DNA of 24,896 nucleotides from Leptospirales bacterium (GTDB taxonomy: Bacteria > Spirochaetota > Leptospiria > Turneriellales > JAOUFE01), in assembly GCA_040326155.1 (NCBI GenBank), contig JBEQLE010000064.1:1-24896 (forward strand). Direction: 5' to 3'. The notes under the pieces were generated by a model. The model made no database searches. It was not told the origin of the DNA and was given only the letters and a program-made list of their open reading frames with translations. Position 1 is the stretch's first letter; every line of letters begins with the position of its first letter. A program made the position numbers and the translations under genes. Below are positions 699 through 24,896 of the stretch, one piece after another.

Positions 699-758
699 AC
701 GCGTGGGGTAGCTTAGGCCGCTGAGCGGCCGGAGCGAGGGGCGCGCTAAGCCCCCTTT
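699..758 (+). repeat. Dispersed G-run/hairpin element, copy 1
   Basis: ACGCGTGGGGTAGC, then the hairpin GGCCGC-tga-GCGGCC, then CGAGGGGCGCGCTAAGCCCCCTTT. The scaffold matches 24802-24856 and 17725-17781. Confidence 0.65.
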
Positions 759-3257: not shown

Positions 3258-6200
3258 TTAGTAGGTCAGGTTGTAGTAGATGTTGTTTGGTTGCCCTGAG
3301 TTACCTTCTATTAGGTCAAGGTCGCCATCATTATCAATATCGCCTAAGTCTAAAGAAGTTGTTTGATTATAAATTCCTAATGCTTGACCACTGTCTGTGA
3401 ATACTCCGAGACCATCATTAAAGTAAATCTTGTTCGCGGCGCCATTATTACTCTCAACAATATCAAGATCGCCATCATCATCCACATCGCCTAAAATAAT
3501 CAAGTTTACCATCCATTGATAATATTTACCAAGATATTGACCACTGTCAGTGAAAACACCGGAACCATTGTTCAAGTAAATTTTACTTTTTCCATTGTTT
3601 GGATCAATAGGCCCCCAGCTGAAATCAGAAATGTACTTATTTCCTTCCACAAGATCAAGATCACCGTCTCCATCAACATCGCCAAACGCAACACTCACTG
3701 TATTGGATAGTCCGATACTCTGGGCGCTTTTTGTAAACATACCCGATCCATCATTTAAAAAAGTACTGTTGGCTATTCCCTGCCCACTGCCATGGATAGT
3801 GCCATTTCCTTGTACAAGGTCTGGATCTCCATCGCCATCAATATCGCCCAACGCAATTGAAACACCGTAGTAACCAGCATATATTATCTGGCCGTTGTTA
3901 TTAAAGCCCCCTGTACCATCATTCAAATGTACTTTGCTGTAAGAGCCAGATGAAATAATAAAATCGACATCATTATCTCCATCGAGATCTCCTGTAAGAA
4001 TACTGATTTTATTCGACAAACTACTAACTGGGTATAAATTCTGGCCGCTGTCAGTATAGTTACCCAGACCGTCATTAAAATAGATTTTATTGTAGCCCAT
4101 TCCCATCCCATTTATTGCTTCGACAATGTCGAGGTCACCGTCATTGTCGAAGTCTGCTAAGGCTATGGTTGAGGTTCTGTTTTCTGCAAAAAAATCCGGG
4201 CAATTATCAATAAGAATGGTCAAACCGTCATTCATGCAAATTTTAGAAGAATTCCAGTAGTAACCTCCTTCGACCAGGTCAAGATAACCATCATTATTAA
4301 TATCTCCAAAAGAGACACTCATCGTTTGTGTCAGTACACGTGTTTGCCCTGTATCGGTAAAATTCCCCATACCATCATTCAGGGATATTTTATTGTCGTG
4401 TCCGATGTTCGCGGTGGCAATATCAAGGTTTCCATCGCCGTTTACATCTGCCAAAAGAATTAACCTGATATTGCCAGTATCAAGAATTTGACCGCTGTCG
4501 ATATATACTCCCGTTCCGTCGTTTAATAAAACTTTACTTCCAGGATAAGAGGCGCCGATTACTATATCAAGATCGCCATCTCCATCAACATCACCGGTGG
4601 CCATAATTCCTCCATATGTATAAGGAGAGATGGCCCCGTTATGAACAAAATTTCCGGTTCCATCATTAATATAAATTGTGACCCGGCCGCCTCCAACCAT
4701 CTCGATAATATCAAGTGCGCCGTCACCATCAACATCTTCCAATAATATTTTGCCGCTTAAAATAATTGTCTGACCACTATCAACGAAATTACCGGTCCCA
4801 TCGTTTAGGTATATTTTATTGGGCCAAACATAGACACTCTTTACCTCAATAATATCAAGGTCACCGTCATTGTCAATATCACCGAGCGCTACGGATATAT
4901 TGGTTCCTATGTCTCGAATTGTTTGCCCCTGGCTGAATACTCCCGAACCATTGTTCATAAAAAAACTCATTGCGCCATACCATGTTGTCGCAAACAAATC
5001 AAGATCACCATCATTATCCAAATCTGCCAAAGCGACGACCGTCCAGTAGGATGCAATTTGCCTGCTCGATACAAACGTTCCGGTTCCATCGTTTATATAG
5101 ACTTTACTATTACTACTATTTCCAGTAACTAAATCAAGATCGCCATCGTTATCCAGATCTCCCAGGAAAATATTGGTTGTCAAATCTGTCCCCAGATTTT
5201 GACCGCTATCTATAAATATTCCTGTCCCATCATTTAGATAAACCTTATTGGGCTGTCTCCAATTACCTTCCACTCGATCTATGTCGCCATCTCCGTCGAC
5301 GTCACCCATGGCTATAGTATAGGTGCTATAATTATGATCCGGACTGTTGTCTGCAAATATACCCGGCTGAATTTTTGGTCTATTTGAGACACAATCCACC
5401 GCCACACTAACATGGCTGCCCGCCACATTCCCGGTGCCACCGGTTATGGTACAGGTTTTCCCAGTTGGTTGCGTAATAACCGTTACATTGTATGCTGCCG
5501 TATCCAATACGCGGCCCAGAAATTCATAAACATCGCTGCCCGTTCCGCCGCCGGTAACACTTAAATTCTCTCCATTGTTGTCGATGACCAAAACATCAGA
5601 CAAGGCCAACCCGGTTACGGTACCGCCAACCGTGGCGTCAAAACCGTTCGGGTTTGTTCCATTTTGGTATTCGATTACGTTGGTAAGCAGGTCACCGTCA
5701 AGATCTCCTGCACCATCGTTTACTGCCGGGTTCAGTCCGTTATCGAACTCCCAGCGGTCGTTCATCAGGTCGGGGGGAATTTCCGCATCGGGATTATACG
5801 AATAAACAAAATCGCTCGCCCCGGGAACAAGTGGGTCACAACCAGCCGGGGCGAAAGAATATGTAAGTTTTCCGGTCTTTGTTGTTTCTGTTGTGTGAAT
5901 ACACATTTGTACATTTGCCGGGTTAATTACATCCGGGTAAAACGGAGCTGCTGGAAGCGAAGCTTCATATAGCCCTGTCGCCACGTTCAAAACCATTGGT
6001 TGCTGTGGCTGGGAAATACCGTTAATCAGATAAGCCAGAGTCACTGTATTTACGGTGGTGGTTGTCTGTTTTGGAGTAATGGTCGCGGTTACGCTTTCGG
6101 GTACCTGGGTAATGGTTACTCCCGCATTGATAATGTCCGCCGATACTACGGAGCCGGAATTTCCACCAAGAGCAAACGGAGTAAAGTGGTTTACTGTCGC

Positions 6201-7193
6201 TGTGACTGTGTTCGAGGCAAGATTTACCGTGCCGCCGATGCTGACCCAGTCTTGCTGAATATCGTCGTAATAAAGCATTTCGAGGGTGCTTGCATCGAGC
6301 CCGAGAGTTGTTACTTCTGCGGGGTCGTAATTCATGGTAATTGTAATATCGCCATTAAAAAGTGTTCCGTCAGGCAGAAGCTCATAACGATTTGAAAGCA
6401 GTGTCATGCCCGAAAATGGTGAACCGTAAGGCGTCCCTTTTAAGGGTAAGATTTCAATATTGGTATCTGCGTTTAGAACTCCTGCTGGAATATCGAGCAT
6501 AATCTCGTTTAGAATTCCAGTGGAACCTCCGGTGGCCGCGTTAATGGTTGTTCCCGCGCCAGGCGTTGTTTGTGCGTCGATGACTTTAATAACAGGTTTG
6601 AGCATAAAGCCCTGCCCTTTGTTATAATGAATCGATTTTTGCGCGTCAAAGTCGATGGTCAATACAGTATAACCCTGTGAGTCTACCGTAAAAGAGTGAA
6701 TAAGTTTTATTCCGGTTTGTCCGCCTGATGGTGTTTTCAGGGGTTCTTGTGTTATTACACCTTTGGTATTTACATTCAAATAGTTCGCGTCGTTTAAAAC
6801 AAATCGCATCTGGTCGTAGGTACCGGGGTCGAGACTGAATGAACCTAAAGCGGCTGTAACCCCGTTTTGCAGTTGCAAAAGATCGAAGGTTTTACCGGCG
6901 TCGCCAAAATCAACCACGGTCATCCATCCCTCAGTCGCCGAGTTAACTTCAATAGAACGGAAATTCACCATAACAGAGGTAACGTCTTTATTTTGAATCG
7001 GAAAATCGGTCAGTAAAAGGGTCACCGCTCCTTTGTTGCCGTCCGGACCAAAGGCATTTTTGGTAAAAACACCAGCTTCTTTTTGCTGATTAACAGCAGT
7101 TGTACAAAAGCCTGAAGCTATTGCCAATATAGAAATAAATAATATCTTTATAAACCCATTGTTTAAAGGCTCGAATAACGTCTTGATTGTCAT
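3258..7193 (-). CDS. Large surface protein: DUF4382-like domain, ZU5-like region, Ca-binding repeat, Ig-like module and 14 FG-GAP/VCBS repeats
   Basis: ATG at 7193 follows GGGAG. Signal region ends ...ASGFC. DUF4382-type motifs are LLTDFP, FDLLQLQNG, PSGGQTGIKL, IDFDAQKS and LKPVIK. DRWEFDNGLNP..DLDGDLLTN..EY..GTNP is a Ca-binding repeat. There are 14 GD(V/L/I)DxDGDLD-type repeats. Confidence 0.9.
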   Translation of the reverse strand: MTIKTLFEPLNNGFIKILFISILAIASGFCTTAVNQQKEAGVFTKNAFGPDGNKGAVTLLLTDFPIQNKDVTSVMVNFRSIEVNSATEGWMTVVDFGDAGKTFDLLQLQNGVTAALGSFSLDPGTYDQMRFVLNDANYLNVNTKGVITQEPLKTPSGGQTGIKLIHSFTVDSQGYTVLTIDFDAQKSIHYNKGQGFMLKPVIKVIDAQTTPGAGTTINAATGGSTGILNEIMLDIPAGVLNADTNIEILPLKGTPYGSPFSGMTLLSNRYELLPDGTLFNGDITITMNYDPAEVTTLGLDASTLEMLYYDDIQQDWVSIGGTVNLASNTVTATVNHFTPFALGGNSGSVVSADIINAGVTITQVPESVTATITPKQTTTTVNTVTLAYLINGISQPQQPMVLNVATGLYEASLPAAPFYPDVINPANVQMCIHTTETTKTGKLTYSFAPAGCDPLVPGASDFVYSYNPDAEIPPDLMNDRWEFDNGLNPAVNDGAGDLDGDLLTNVIEYQNGTNPNGFDATVGGTVTGLALSDVLVIDNNGENLSVTGGGTGSDVYEFLGRVLDTAAYNVTVITQPTGKTCTITGGTGNVAGSHVSVAVDCVSNRPKIQPGIFADNSPDHNYSTYTIAMGDVDGDGDIDRVEGNWRQPNKVYLNDGTGIFIDSGQNLGTDLTTNIFLGDLDNDGDLDLVTGNSSNSKVYINDGTGTFVSSRQIASYWTVVALADLDNDGDLDLFATTWYGAMSFFMNNGSGVFSQGQTIRDIGTNISVALGDIDNDGDLDIIEVKSVYVWPNKIYLNDGTGNFVDSGQTIILSGKILLEDVDGDGALDIIEMVGGGRVTIYINDGTGNFVHNGAISPYTYGGIMATGDVDGDGDLDIVIGASYPGSKVLLNDGTGVYIDSGQILDTGNIRLILLADVNGDGNLDIATANIGHDNKISLNDGMGNFTDTGQTRVLTQTMSVSFGDINNDGYLDLVEGGYYWNSSKICMNDGLTILIDNCPDFFAENRTSTIALADFDNDGDLDIVEAINGMGMGYNKIYFNDGLGNYTDSGQNLYPVSSLSNKISILTGDLDGDNDVDFIISSGSYSKVHLNDGTGGFNNNGQIIYAGYYGVSIALGDIDGDGDPDLVQGNGTIHGSGQGIANSTFLNDGSGMFTKSAQSIGLSNTVSVAFGDVDGDGDLDLVEGNKYISDFSWGPIDPNNGKSKIYLNNGSGVFTDSGQYLGKYYQWMVNLIILGDVDDDGDLDIVESNNGAANKIYFNDGLGVFTDSGQALGIYNQTTSLDLGDIDNDGDLDLIEGNSGQPNNIYYNLTY

Positions 7194-7392
7194 AATTTTG
7201 TCTCCCGGTACATCATTTTGAACCACCAAGGCAATACCCCCATTTGCGGTCAATGTTTTTTCGAAATTTATATATTTGGTACATAATTTTACGAGTATTT
7301 TCGTGTTTTTTTCTTTAATAATGTTATGGGCGAATTCGAATCGGTAGAAGAGGGTTAGACATGATTTACAGGATGGGGTGCTGCGACCAATA

Positions 7393-7497
7393 TGTAGGGG
7401 GTAGTGAAGAATCTTTTTTGTTTGTTAAAATCCCGCTACCGGCGGTTGGTGGAACTTGACAAAAAAATTCGGAACGTGGGGGAAAACTTTCCCCCTC
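7393..7497 (+). repeat. Dispersed G-run/hairpin element, copy 2
   Basis: GTAGGGGGTAGTGAAGAATCTTTTTTG...[imperfect hairpin]...ACAAAAAAATTCGGAACGTGGGGGAAAACTTTCCCCCTC. The flanks align with the reverse complement of 17562-17652. Confidence 0.65.
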
Positions 7498-7602: not shown

Positions 7603-9087
7603 ATGAAAATTATTAAACTTCTAATTCAGTTCTTTTTTATATCGGTAATTTTAGCCAGTTGTGGAAATAACGGCGGTGGCGGTGGAGGCGGCAATAACGT
7701 TTCGTCGGTCTGCGATGATAACAATGTTGATGAGGGTGTCTTTGCAGCTACCCCTGCGGTTTGCGACTATTATGTGGACGATGCTACGGGCGATGACAAC
7801 GATGACGGAACCACCGAACTGCTTGCCTGGAAAACTCTCGATCGGGCCGTTGGCTGGAACAGTTCTAGCGGTGTAGACGGTAAAACGGTTTGTGTTAAAA
7901 ATGGAACTTACGCGGGTGTCGACATTCGGCGTACCGGTACCGACGCGGCGAACTACCTTACCATTCGAGCTATGGCAGCTCACTCCCCTGTTGTTTCGGC
8001 AAAGTCAGATACCCCCTACTGTTTTGACGGCGATACGGCGAGCGGTAGTATCTCTTATGTTATTATAGACGGGTTTGATTGTACCGAAGATCTGGCGGAC
8101 GGGCAGGCAAACGATGGGGCCGGTATTGCCTTTTACGAGTTGGACTCAACAAACATAATTATACGAAATAATATTATACACGATATCGGTATTGAGGCGC
8201 CCACAGAGCCAAACCCGGGAATTATTTTTGCGGGGGCGGGAACCCATCGCAATATTTTAATTGAAAATAATACGTTTGATGATAATGACGGCGAAGGCCT
8301 CTACCTTGGCACGGCTACGGCCAGCAAGCTTGGGTATCTGGCTTATAATATAGTCGTTAAAAATAACACTTTTACGAATAACAACGATACTGTGCCTGCG
8401 GCCTGCGGAGGTTTAGCTCGGTGCGGTGAAGAGGCCATTGACATTAAACCCACTGTGTGTTCCGCTCTAATTAAAAATAACACGATTGATAATTTCGGGC
8501 AAACAGGTTCGGCAATTCGTCTGGACGGTCGTTTTGTGGAGCTTGCCTACAATACAATTATCGATTCAGGTCATGCTGACAATGAGGACGGTTCTTTTGC
8601 AATCTCGTTTTCTTCGGCGTTAAATGATGTGGACTATTATGACGGGCATTATATTCATCACAATGTTTTTGTAAGGGTAAAAGTCAGCACGCCCGACCCC
8701 TGGGCCGATTCGTTTATTCTGATGCCCGGTTGTAACGACTGTTCCAACATTACAACTCCGTTTATTATTTCGCACAATACATTTATCGATGCTGAAAAAT
8801 TCGGTATTTTCTTAAACGAAGAGACTGGCGCTCATGAAATAAAAGACAATGTTTTTGTGGGCAGCGCAGATAAGCATATTAAAAAACACCAGGCAACTTC
8901 TACCATTATAGATAACAACGCTTTTGAAACTCCAAATACCTACGACGTAAATGACGCGAGCGAACTTTTAGGTACCAACACCGGAAATTTTCTTGTAAAT
9001 GTAAACGATGGCACCCTCGGGGGCGGTTCCACTTTAAAAAATGCGGCCAGCGACGGAACCCATATCGGGGCGAATCAACTGCCTTAA
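7603..9087 (+). CDS. Lipoprotein with right-handed parallel beta-helix (pectin lyase-like) repeats
   Basis: Lipobox LASC, then a Gly-rich linker. The N-cap reads YYVD...GDD.DDGT..LAWKTL.RA...VKNGTY. Repeated I(I/R)NN(T/I)(F/I) beta-helix rungs follow, and the C-terminus is DGTHIGA. Confidence 0.85.
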   Translation: MKIIKLLIQFFFISVILASCGNNGGGGGGGNNVSSVCDDNNVDEGVFAATPAVCDYYVDDATGDDNDDGTTELLAWKTLDRAVGWNSSSGVDGKTVCVKNGTYAGVDIRRTGTDAANYLTIRAMAAHSPVVSAKSDTPYCFDGDTASGSISYVIIDGFDCTEDLADGQANDGAGIAFYELDSTNIIIRNNIIHDIGIEAPTEPNPGIIFAGAGTHRNILIENNTFDDNDGEGLYLGTATASKLGYLAYNIVVKNNTFTNNNDTVPAACGGLARCGEEAIDIKPTVCSALIKNNTIDNFGQTGSAIRLDGRFVELAYNTIIDSGHADNEDGSFAISFSSALNDVDYYDGHYIHHNVFVRVKVSTPDPWADSFILMPGCNDCSNITTPFIISHNTFIDAEKFGIFLNEETGAHEIKDNVFVGSADKHIKKHQATSTIIDNNAFETPNTYDVNDASELLGTNTGNFLVNVNDGTLGGGSTLKNAASDGTHIGANQLP

Positions 9088-9120
9088 TTCGGGTTGGTAT
9101 AAATTGATATTTCATATTTA

Positions 9121-9386
9121 AAAAGGGGGCGCAGGTATCGTTGTCCTTCTTTTTATTTTCAAAAAAATAAAAACCAATACAGACCCCCTTGGTTTGTTAT
9201 TATTGTTGGTTGCTACGCGCTCAACAAAAATAACAAACCCCCTTGGTTCCGGCTTTTCGGCTGTTTTTGAGCGCCAATTGCCTTTGGCAATCGATGCATT
9301 TAATTGCGCCGAAAGAGCCTCCGCCAACCCACTGGTTGTCTACGACCCGGCGCAAAGGCCCCGGTTCTTCGCCAACCCACTGGTAA
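9121..9386 (-). repeat. Tandem array of four different hairpins separated by conserved junctions (expanded member of the G-run/hairpin family)
   Basis: Junctions are ACCCCCTTGGTT (9183-9194, 9237-9248) and CGCCAACCCACTGGT (9322-9336, 9370-9384). Inverted repeats lie at 9150-9173, 9191-9239, 9251-9319 and 9344-9367. Confidence 0.75.
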
Positions 9387-9432
9387 TTAAATTTCAGCGT
9401 CGCCGAAATGGAGCTTTCGTGAAGTGGAAGTG

Positions 9433-9627
9433 AACTTTAAACAGAAATCGAACGTAGTGACGAAGGTTCCCCGAACCTGGATTTTTTTAAACTAAAATAC
9501 CATGTAGCGATCGAAAATAAATGACATTTTTTTTCGAAAATAACTTTAAGCGGAAATCGAACGTAGCAGCACAAAAAAACCGCAGGATTTTTTTGTACAC
9601 TAAAAATGAAAAAAAATCGAACTTTTG
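9433..9627 (+). repeat. Repeat B region upstream of the RHH gene with three AAATCGAAC boxes; 9493-9610 is duplicated at 14141-14255
   Basis: AAATCGAACGTAG occurs at 9445 and 9554, and AAATCGAACTTT at 9614. The 43-bp core 9554-9596 differs from 14201-14243 at 2 positions. Confidence 0.85.
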
Positions 9628-9642
9628 CCTATTACACTTACT

Positions 9643-10206
9643 ATGAAGAACAAAAGTACGTATAGAAAGCTGAAGATACCGATTGATAATGTTTTAGAAA
9701 TTCGCTTGCCATATTTAACCTGGAAAAAGATAAAGTGGGTGGCAGTCGGGAAAAATCGAAGTTGCTCGTGGGTGGTCCGCTACACTATTTTTAGAATGAT
9801 TAAGCGACATGGACCGTTACATCGGGGTGTTGAAATTGCGGGAGCTCGATCTAAAAAGATTGCGAAGTTAAACGAGCAAGTGCGAGAGGAAAGAATGGAT
9901 AGCAAGAAAAAACACAGGCACAGGTTGTGTCTTTATGGACAGGACGAATTGTTTATTCGAATTGCCGCTGCAAAAATGGGCTGTAGTATGACTCATTTGG
10001 TACGTTTGGCGCTTGCGTTATATTTGGATGATTTAGTGAGAAAGTTTCCGTCTTTCGGGCGTTCCAGGGATTACCGTGGCAGGTTTAACAGTGCGGCCTG
10101 GCGGTGTCTGGGTATCAAGATCTACCTTGGTGTGAGATTCCACACCAAGGCCGCAAGACACCAGCTCTTTGAGTTCACCCACTACAAACCCAGCGATTAT
10201 TGGTAA
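9643..10206 (+). CDS. Basic protein with two predicted ribbon-helix-helix motifs (reminiscent of Leptospira DUF1564-type proteins)
   Basis: Strand-helix-helix patterns LEIRLPYLTWKKIKWVAVGKNRSCSWVVRYTI and HRLCLYGQDELFIRIAAAKMGCSMTHLVRLALALYL. ATG 9643 is preferred over TTG 9625. Confidence 0.6.
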   Translation: MKNKSTYRKLKIPIDNVLEIRLPYLTWKKIKWVAVGKNRSCSWVVRYTIFRMIKRHGPLHRGVEIAGARSKKIAKLNEQVREERMDSKKKHRHRLCLYGQDELFIRIAAAKMGCSMTHLVRLALALYLDDLVRKFPSFGRSRDYRGRFNSAAWRCLGIKIYLGVRFHTKAARHQLFEFTHYKPSDYW

Positions 10207-17512: not shown

Positions 17513-17561
17513 ATCTCAATTATCGACCATAACCCATTTTTTTGAACCTAAAATATGTGAA

Positions 17562-17652
17562 TGGGTGGCAGTCGCCCCCCTCGTTTCGGCTTTTTTGTTG
17601 GTGTCGCATATATGCGACACCAACAAAAAGATCCTACACTACCCCCCACGTT
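17562..17652 (-). repeat. Dispersed G-run/hairpin element containing a perfect 38-bp palindrome (17592-17629)
   Basis: Minus strand reads AACGTGGGGGGTAGTGTAGGATC-[TTTTTGTTGGTGTCGCATA|TATGCGACACCAACAAAAA]-AGCCGAAACGAGGGGGGCGACTGCCACCC. Confidence 0.75.
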
Positions 17653-24772: not shown

Positions 24773-24896
24773 GAAAACGAAGTTTACAAGTTCAGTAGAA
24801 TACGCGGGGGTAGCGCAAACCGCCGCAGACGGTTGGTGCTAGGGGCGAGCTAACCCGAGCGCCATCACCCAGAGAGGGGTGATGCACGCTCGGCGC
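24773..24896 (+). repeat. Dispersed G-run/hairpin element (runs off the window)
   Basis: The 5' flank is shared with 17697-17738. Sequence reads GGGGGT-AGCGCAAACCG..CGGTTGGTGCT-AGGGGCGAGCTAACC, then a second hairpin CGAGCG.CATCACCC/GGGTGATG..CGCTCG. Confidence 0.75.

Follow-up and report, generated by a model that had tools for sequence, protein, structure and literature searches.

The stretch of DNA analysed here (the window) comprises the 24,896 nt of contig JBEQLE010000064.1 in the genome assembly of a Leptospirales bacterium (GCA_040326155.1). Between a gene for a right-handed beta-helix protein and a gene for a predicted ribbon-helix-helix (RHH) protein, the window carries at 9120-9386 a row of short repeats separated by hairpins, which a preliminary description had likened to a repeat-spacer array. 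We found that this array is a copy, expanded to an unusual degree, of a modular interspersed repeat that is high in copy number and uncatalogued, and to which we gave the working label GCC element.

Layout of the array at 9120-9386

Direct reading and repeat finding placed the 12-mer ACCCCCTTGGTT at 9183 and 9237 and the 15-mer CGCCAACCCACTGGT at 9322 and 9370. The first pair belongs to direct repeat D5 (9179-9194 and 9233-9248, 16 nt, 94% identity) and the second to D4 (9319-9336 and 9367-9384, 18 nt, 94% identity). The spacings of the four junctions are 54, 90 and 48 nt, the 90 being counted from ACCCACTGGT at 9327. Four different inverted repeats accompany them: an AT hairpin (I10, 9150-9159/9164-9173, 100% match), an 18-nt repeat (I1, 9191-9208/9222-9239, 94% match), the pairing of GGCTTTTCGGC (9251-9261) with GCCGAAAGAGCC (9308-9319), inside which ATTGCC/GGCAAT (9277-9282/9286-9291) is nested, and a GC hairpin in which 8 of 10 positions of GACCCGGCGC (9344-9353) and GCCCCGGTTC (9358-9367) pair. 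All of these junctions, spacings and inverted repeats lie where the preliminary description had put them. The folding check proposed there, against dinucleotide shuffles, likewise came out in its favour on both strands. The folding energy was -88.9 kcal/mol on the + strand (-68.7 ± 4.8 in shuffles, z -4.24) and -103.5 kcal/mol on the - strand (-77.6 ± 4.9, z -5.32), and none of 200 shuffles was as good in either case. A scan of the window found no tRNA or tmRNA.

The covariance model R1, which was built from 20 copies of the family and has 86 positions and 19 pairs, aligned over its full length with 9122-9336 (all 86 model positions, 36.8 bits, E 7.5e-7; E 6.5e-8 with filters off). A partial match of 9337-9374 to model positions 48-76 was weak (7.8 bits). 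The parts of the array, all on the + strand, are as follows.

9120..9129, + strand: A-run and G-run (AAAAAGGGGG), the 5' strand of stem P1; covariance-model alignment, with the G-run (9125-9129) invariant in the family
9130..9178, + strand: loop of P1, permissive site 1, with a weak P2-like stem (GCAGG..CCUUC) and the AT hairpin at 9150-9173; I10 and model alignment
9179..9194, + strand: junction 1, an extra near-copy of the mid C-run (ACAGACCCCCTTGGTT); direct repeat D5
9191..9239, + strand: inserted hairpin unit with an 18-bp stem, whose foot combines GGTT from junction 1 with AACC from junction 2; I1 and fold
9233..9248, + strand: junction 2, with the canonical mid C-run as the 3' strand of P1 and, after it, the 5' strand of P3 (TTGG); model alignment, family consensus ACAAACCCCCTTGG
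9249..9321, + strand: internal loop and P4 hairpin (GGCT..AGCC type) with the long nested insert ATTGCC/GGCAAT, permissive site 2; direct reading, fold and model alignment
9319..9336, + strand: junction 3, the 3' strand of P3 (GCCAA) and the 3' C-run, here CCCACTGG, which doubles as the mid C-run of the next unit; D4 and the end of the full-length model match
9337..9368, + strand: second unit of P3, internal loop and P4 (TTGTC TAC GACC..GGTTC TTC); weak partial model match, resembling canonical TTGTCTGCGACC..GGTTCTCCGCCAACC
9367..9386, + strand: junction 4, the terminal 3' C-run module ending in GGTAA; D4, family tail CCGGTA

The four junctions are thus four C-run modules, and the apparent spacers are three hairpin units together with the hairpin of loop 1. 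Within this layout, the second ACCCCCTTGG, at 9238, serves as the canonical mid C-run. Compared with an ordinary copy, the window copy has two extras, namely the near-copy of the mid junction (9179-9194) with its 18-bp hairpin and a second set of P3, internal loop, P4 and C-run (9337-9386). A unit of C-run plus hairpin that is single in an ordinary copy is therefore present three times. By a strict pattern for the 3' junction, the window copy is the only one among 130 with two full 3' junctions, which gives it the look of a repeat-spacer array. Weaker second junctions were seen by eye in C45 (cut by a contig end), C22, C92, C130 and C95. The nearest simple relative of the 5' half of the window copy, with the same 5' part, lies at C33:11012-11120, and the GGCT/AGCC foot of its P4 recurs in copies C15 and C149.

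A dispersed family with a common core

Sites sharing CCCCCTTGG or AACCCACTGG occur at about ten loci of one layout, which reads GGAAGGGGGCGG, hairpin, ACAAACCCCCTTGGCNCCGACC, hairpin, TTCTCYGCCAACCCCCCGGTA. The genome to which the window belongs (G000) comprises 171 contigs and 4.26 Mb and is 94.7% complete. Iterated nhmmer searches of it gave 34, 53, 66 and then 93 matches at E ≤ 0.01, and R1 gave at least 59 at the same threshold, with 150 of 2139 candidates scored. A structure-aware regular expression found 72 matches against 5 in reversed-sequence controls, and half of them (36 of 72) were new. The union of the three detectors amounts to 130 distinct copies, or about 30 per Mb, which is a lower bound as weaker copies were missed. 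The junction 12-mer and 15-mer themselves are scarce, with three sites each in the genome, two of which are in the window copy.

Four further matches lie in the window itself.

699..757, - strand: second GCC copy, in minimal form; 23.8 bits, also found by the regular expression
7393..7497, - strand: third GCC copy, weaker; 19.8 bits, E 0.0012 (R1, filters off)
17561..17651, + strand: fourth GCC copy, whose P4 holds the palindrome GTGTCGCATATATGCGACAC; 16.9 bits, E 0.0067 (R1, filters off)
24801-24858, - strand: fifth, weaker GCC match; 12.1 bits

The likeness of the array to an element at 699-758 that had been pointed out from the letters of the window is accordingly one of family membership, and the search for similar junctions suggested at the same time leads to at least 130 dispersed copies, of which the usual one has a single unit.

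The family is absent from the catalogues and texts consulted. The window had no match in Rfam 15 at the gathering score, and none to a CRISPR (clustered regularly interspaced short palindromic repeats) repeat family. Twenty canonical copies searched against Rfam at E ≤ 10 gave chance-level matches only, none of them on the core of the element, and four loci from relatives had none on the element at E ≤ 1. We found no description of the GCC element in the literature searched, which included Leptospira small RNA (sRNA) papers and supplements as far as these were available to us.

It is scarcely credible that the array is CRISPR-like or a protein-coding frame. Its repeat-spacer appearance and two open reading frames (ORFs), of 79 codons on the + strand (9194-9433) and 69 codons on the - strand (9118-9327), could be taken for either. 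However, the repeats measure 12-18 nt, the "spacers" are self-complementary hairpins, and the same repeats occur singly at 130 dispersed sites, so the earlier rejection of CRISPR stands as far as the repeats are concerned (no search for cas genes was made). A coding role, which had been named as a possible refutation, is contradicted by insertions of arbitrary length among family members (10-126 nt in P4, 3-108 nt in loop 1), and large BOX elements are likewise reported to create spurious ORFs on both strands (PMC3049150).

The core runs in the order AA-G(4-7), loop 1, mid C-run, P3, internal loop, P4 with loop 2, return strand of P3 and second C-run, and is preceded by a flank that is T-rich and then A-rich. 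In P1, the G-run of 4-7 G pairs with the mid C-run in 97% of cells. Its loop measures 3-6 nt in minimal copies, about 33 nt with a P2 hairpin and about 55-62 nt with an extra palindrome, with an overall range of 3-108 nt. P3 (4-5 bp) directly follows the mid C-run and takes the forms TTGGC/GCCAA, TGAC/GTCA, TCGT/ACTA and others; the pairing of GGTT and AACC between junctions that the preliminary description had noticed is this stem. At its second pair, P3 has either G-C (43 copies) or C.U (42 copies) and nothing else. The internal loop, U-N-C opposite Y-U-N-C, is near-invariant (C174 in 84 of 86 copies, U352 in 83 of 86). The foot of P4 covaries (ACC/GGT, AAC/GTT, GCT/AGC, AAT/ATT), and P4 as a whole spans 10 to 126 nt and contains unrelated hairpins or perfect palindromes. 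The mid and 3' C-runs tend to match in length: among 81 copies scored, lengths were (5,5) in 21, (6,6) in 16, (4,4) in 14 and (5,6) in 12.

In a structural alignment of 86 rows, 82.7% of 1438 cells were paired compared with 72.3% in shuffles. The covariation score was 0.274, compared with 0.147 in shuffles (0 of 500 reached 0.274) and at most 0.215 in slid controls. It should be noted that the alignment was fitted to the model and that its rows are paralogs, so these figures are support rather than proof. Among the modelled pairs, G.U (91) outnumbered A.C (43), which favours one strand.

Loops 1 and 2 accept unrelated hairpins and palindromes of 3 to more than 100 nt, including other repeats. 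P4 is duplicated in copy C108a, and a repeat of another family, R2 (see below), is nested within P4 of copy C123. Identical palindromes recur as loop cargo across subfamilies (GTGTCGCATATATGCGACAC, GTCACAACATGTTGTGAC, ACGCGATTCATCGCGT and GTGGGCGTAAACGCCCAC; window 17595-17625 and copies C98, C83, C94 and C152), which suggests either an exchange of modules or separate small palindromic elements. Two side observations concern single copies. A weak match to the CRISPR-DR36 model (19.8 bits, E 0.78) adjoins a GCC copy at C142:12449-12480 of G000 (L026:50-81), with GGGGATTTCCCC-type palindromes nearby. A short run of N, seen as XXXX in ORF translations and possibly an assembly gap, adjoins another copy at L080:2830-2850 (C108 of G000, about 15520).

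Several features of the core are those of a specific conserved structured RNA or an RNA-protein site, of which many copies in this genome would be functional, with the internal loop as the binding site. The equality of the two C-runs in most of the 81 copies, the near-invariant internal loop, the restricted second pair of P3 and the excess of G.U over A.C all point this way, and the freedom of both peripheral loops to vary is seen in many functional RNAs. The fold would be a two-state switch, in which the two C-runs vie for the one G-run, or a purine-pyrimidine-pyrimidine triple strand. Pyrimidine-purine-pyrimidine triplexes and ENE/MALAT1-type stabilisers share the layout of the core, in which a purine run, a Watson-Crick pyrimidine run, a hairpin and another, equally long pyrimidine run follow one another in parallel-third-strand order. 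The likeness is one of layout only, as the GCC element would use C+.G-C rather than U.A-U triples and has its purine run 5' rather than 3'. Furthermore, five to six protonated C triples in a row are unstable at neutral pH, which counts against the triple-strand form. Against a structured RNA of either form stand the lack of a preferred context or orientation among the 130 copies in G000, a copy number that ranges from 0 to more than 100 across relatives, the nesting of other repeats within some copies, the lack of a matching Rfam family, and the fitting of the alignment to the model, by which the counts lean its way. We consider this explanation rather unlikely. A self-cleaving ribozyme (hepatitis delta virus-like, pistol or twister) was also considered and rejected: the minimal P1 loop of 3-6 nt is too small for the helices required, and none of the ribozyme models in Rfam matched (best score 13.8 bits, E 4).

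Relatives and neighbouring genes

With strict filters, R1 gave 43 matches in G000 and 14, 12 and 13 in three genomes of the same family. Genus g19, of the same class and with genomes of 4-5 Mb, had 1-4 copies in 15 of 22 genomes, and genera g11 (0 of 14 genomes) and g21 (0 of 9) had no R1 match. In a phylum-wide search of 151 genomes, the only matches outside the class were two single weak ones. A DNA search of 40 relatives with window 8900-9700 found no match beyond G000. Genus g19 is Leptospira-like, judging by a DUF1564 neighbour and by an intergenic motif published for L. interrogans (PMC5243855).

The copies of g19 keep particular places. Among 29 loci, 11 sit 9-70 nt 3' of the stop codon of ileS and are co-oriented with it, 5 lie just 3' of ftsK in the same orientation as the gene, 2 are antisense before ftsK, and 11 are elsewhere, four of these at a common third locus as judged by eye. 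All but one of the 29 were aligned, L157 being left out as a long, aberrant match. The 28 aligned copies, from 15 species and at least four conserved loci, are near-identical although their flanks have diverged, and one pair of P4 compensates (GC in 17, AU in 11); both facts argue for the structured RNA. The copies run on into a CCGGG..CCCGG hairpin that is conserved except for its variable loop, and the ftsK-associated copies end in a hairpin followed by T7-8. In two g19 genomes, inverted copies flank ftsK. A side observation concerns locus L118 of this genus (G045:C1:1369300-1375300), where ftsK is bracketed by two inverted repeats of about 200 nt that contain the GCC core and the next gene is a DUF1564 paralog. 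DUF1564, which adjoins a g19 copy, was tried as a homologue of the RHH family and was unsupported (BLASTP E 1.3, hhalign probability 0.5%).

Neither ileS nor ftsK is mentioned in the main texts of the Leptospira sRNA papers, and the supplements of PMC13224635 held no match. In the supplements of PMC5243855, the two genes appear in the gene and transcription start site tables only and are absent from the sRNA table examined. It is doubtful, though conceivable, that the GCC core is a functional RNA motif of the class Leptospirae, long kept 3' of ileS and ftsK before a single uncultured lineage multiplied it more than 100-fold together with cargo hairpins. Were this the case, it would represent a bacterial RNA structural class without a catalogued relative, with a natural library of more than 100 variants.

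Three features adjoin the array in the window.

7603..9087, + strand: upstream gene for a 494-aa right-handed beta-helix protein; ORF with Pfam Beta_helix (1.5e-12), NosD and Disaggr_assoc
9433..9620, + strand: 2-3 tandem copies of R2, a different repeat family that lies outside the GCC element; direct repeats D1-D3 and D6, multi-copy in the genome
9643..10206, + strand: tandem RHH gene with its own conserved promoter-like box directly upstream; homologues, structure model and fold search

The stop codon of the beta-helix gene lies 34 nt 5' of the array, and the two are co-oriented. As a further observation, the beta-helix gene diverges from a gene at 3258-7253 (- strand) across the region that holds the copy at 7393-7497; this gene encodes a protein of 1331 aa in which a DUF4382 domain is accompanied by repeats of the FG-GAP/VCBS type (11 FG-GAP_3 and 5 FG-GAP stretches).

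The ORF at 9643-10206 matched nothing in Pfam or NCBIfam, and none of its 42 homologues has a name. Its assignment as an RHH protein in the preliminary description is borne out at the level of the predicted fold. An AlphaFold model made with 25 homologues has two strand-helix-helix units (predicted local distance difference test ~85-92 there), and its top fold matches in the PDB were chains of the F-plasmid relaxosome (E 1.4e-3), which we take to be TraY, a tandem-RHH protein, followed by AvtR, DndE and single-chain Arc. About 22 paralogs were found in G000, about 26 of full length in genome G001 and 6 in G002. Each paralog in G000 has a conserved box, GAAAAAAATCCAACTTTTGCCTATTACACTTATG, that ends in TATTACACTTATG and runs into the start codon (window 9596-10206), suggesting a leaderless mRNA. 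R2 (TTTAARCNGAAATCGAACGTAG .. AAAAACCGCAGGATTTTTTTGT) sits between the GCC element and the RHH gene. Its A/T-flanked part matches about 109 sites in the genome and GAAAATCGAACG about 70; it occurs in either orientation and sometimes abuts the 5' end of GCC copies.

A co-location of such arrays with RHH paralogs had been put forward, and holds in this genome: 6 of the 22 paralogs have a GCC copy within 600 nt upstream, compared with about 1.5% expected for a random 600-nt stretch. Elsewhere it fails, as none of 30 paralog loci in G001 and G002 has a copy at E ≤ 0.05. In addition, genome G003 has 13 element matches and, like two g19 genomes that carry copies, no RHH paralog that we could find. 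The array might in principle be a cis-regulatory leader or operator for the RHH gene, for which the association in G000 speaks. However, the gene has its own box immediately before its ATG, R2 repeats lie in between, and the copies found upstream of the various paralogs come from different subfamilies and stand in both orientations, so that we hold this to be very improbable. A functional tie between the RHH gene and the element is largely refuted and is not supported by the present evidence. Membership of a family, a core that includes the 5' G-run at 9125-9129, the single-unit norm and the limited tie to RHH genes are what a reader of the window alone could not see.

Likeness to known repeats and possible roles

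We give about even chances to the reading that the GCC element is a modular interspersed repeat of the BOX or BIME (bacterial interspersed mosaic element) kind, which folds into hairpins in untranslated regions. The nearest design is that of BOX in Streptococcus pneumoniae (boxA, n copies of boxB, boxC; PMC3049150), a likeness rather than a homology. As reported for BOX, the GCC element has some 100 or more dispersed intergenic copies and, at its 5' and 3' ends, fixed modules that pair together. In both, an internal hairpin module folds on its own and varies in number, as boxB does, expanded copies make spurious ORFs on both strands, and there are no clear terminal inverted repeats, target-site duplications or known transposase. 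Where they are co-transcribed, RNA structure is the probable means by which BOX-type repeats act (PMC3049150), and action through RNA structure in untranslated regions is what we propose here. The two differ in that they belong to different phyla and are compared by design, not sequence. Unlike BOX, the GCC core consists of one G-run, two equal C-runs and an invariant internal loop, its variable hairpins are mutually unrelated instead of repeating a single boxB, copies with several units are rare (1 of 130), and a sister genus has conserved single copies at the ends of orthologous genes.

The repetitive extragenic palindromes (REP) and BIMEs of enterobacteria, as described in part in PMC3049150 and PMC12306157, are also high-copy extragenic hairpins, often just past stop codons, with mosaic motif combinations and conservation at some orthologous sites. 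The GCC element is itself a high-copy extragenic imperfect palindrome, 96 of its 130 copies having been placed between ORFs. In contrast to REP and BIME, it has no GTAG-type head, no Y1/RAYT (REP-associated tyrosine transposase) gene that was found and no clusters of alternating orientation, and it consists of two adjacent hairpins of about 55-130 nt instead of one palindrome of about 35 nt. MITEs (miniature inverted-repeat transposable elements) such as Correia elements are similar in being small, non-coding, structured, intergenic and of lineage-variable copy number, and the host order is reported as rich in small repeats (PMC11602168). Unlike MITEs, the GCC element has no terminal inverted repeats beyond the G- and C-runs and no target-site duplication, and its core is GC-rich.

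The 96 copies between ORFs, as called crudely with ORFs of at least 100 aa, comprise 54 in tandem, 22 in divergent and 20 in convergent regions, compared with 50.5, 30.3 and 15.2 expected by intergenic length (p 0.13). Of the 54 tandem copies, 28 point the same way as the genes and 26 the opposite way. A 5' leader or riboswitch, suggested by an apparent orientation bias among the first 37 copies, was rejected, as larger sets are neutral (28 versus 26, with 20 convergent); the bias was an artefact because divergent regions score the same in either orientation. No positioned -10 hexamer was found 5' of the G-run among the copies. Window 8900-9750 has three terminator-like sites (1.6 ± 1.4 in shuffles), and at least four consecutive T lie within 14 nt 3' of the 3' C-run in 30 of 72 copies.

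A number of results weigh against a BOX- or BIME-like repeat. The gene call behind the context counts is crude. The parasitic behaviour of BOX, RUP and insertion sequence elements is reported to show as an excess between convergent genes (PMC3049150), and unlike theirs the convergent excess of the GCC element (20 versus 15.2) is small and not significant. No target-site duplication was found among 35 minimal copies (flank word sharing 4.00, compared with 4.13 in permuted pairs). There were no terminal inverted repeats beyond the complementarity of G-run and C-run, and we found no empty site. The Y1 transposase family (PF01797) had no match in G000, which is 94.66% complete, whereas 6 of 14 control genomes matched. 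In 73 of 86 copies it is the reverse strand that folds with the lower energy, which counts against a firm choice of the working strand, although this may be because the reverse strand carries two G-runs. Finally, the equal C-runs and invariant internal loop resemble a specific site of a functional RNA or protein more closely than they do a passive hairpin, and the same is true of the 28 g19 copies, which are almost invariant even in their unpaired stretches.

The lack of orientation preference and the intergenic-only placement would also fit an element that works at the level of DNA, as a recombination, transposition or protein-binding site read in single-stranded or cruciform form, with RNA folding as a by-product. 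REP/RAYT-like sites, attC-like sites and the ends of single-strand transposons are candidates. Two short stems with an unpaired loop between them and a tip of variable structure and very different length recall integron attC sites, which counts for this explanation. The likeness is again one of layout, as the GCC element lacks the GTTRRRY core and co-oriented cassette arrays of attC (no integrase search was made) and has in addition a hairpin with the G-run and a 3' C-run. The perfect palindromes within variable loops, the inverted copies around ftsK and the reported richness of Leptospirales in MITEs (PMC11602168) are on the same side. Against it are the missing PF01797 family, the lack of a target-site duplication and the excess of G.U over A.C pairs. 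Moreover, the genes between close pairs of copies, as judged from their translations and without a family search, are not transposases; they are a flagellin-like ORF and a pair of PIN-type and RHH-like genes. We regard a DNA-level element as unlikely.

Returning to a BOX- or BIME-like repeat, we infer its function and its mode of spread as follows. New units of C-run and hairpin would arise by duplication or by unequal exchange between C-run junctions, which would have produced the three units and four junctions of the window copy. Accretion of hairpin units at a conserved junction had been proposed for the array at the outset; the addition of units and the interchangeable nature of the hairpins are seen in the family, and the route by which units are gained would be the one just given. 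The element would act only when transcribed within an untranslated region. The window copy would be transcribed as the 3' untranslated region of the beta-helix gene, a placement that we liken to that of the conserved g19 copies after ileS and ftsK. At that place, a series of stable hairpins would stop 3'-exonucleases, or would assist in ending or insulating transcription, by analogy with what has been proposed for REP, BIME and BOX. The element would have spread as a non-autonomous one. Since a passive hairpin explains neither the equal C-runs, nor the invariant loop, nor the conservation in g19, a specific RNA or protein-site function is kept as a serious rival.

By way of mRNA stability and termination, and of promoters and spurious ORFs, small interspersed repeats influence the transcriptomes of bacteria; they also mislead annotation. 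The GCC element accounts for at least four structured oddities in the window and about 130 in the genome, and later readers of this genome can recognise its copies instead of calling each a new non-coding RNA. What goes beyond ordinary repeats is a core that is near base-identical after two housekeeping genes in a sister genus, across 15 species, and the three matched G/C runs and the invariant internal loop hint at a specific fold or partner.

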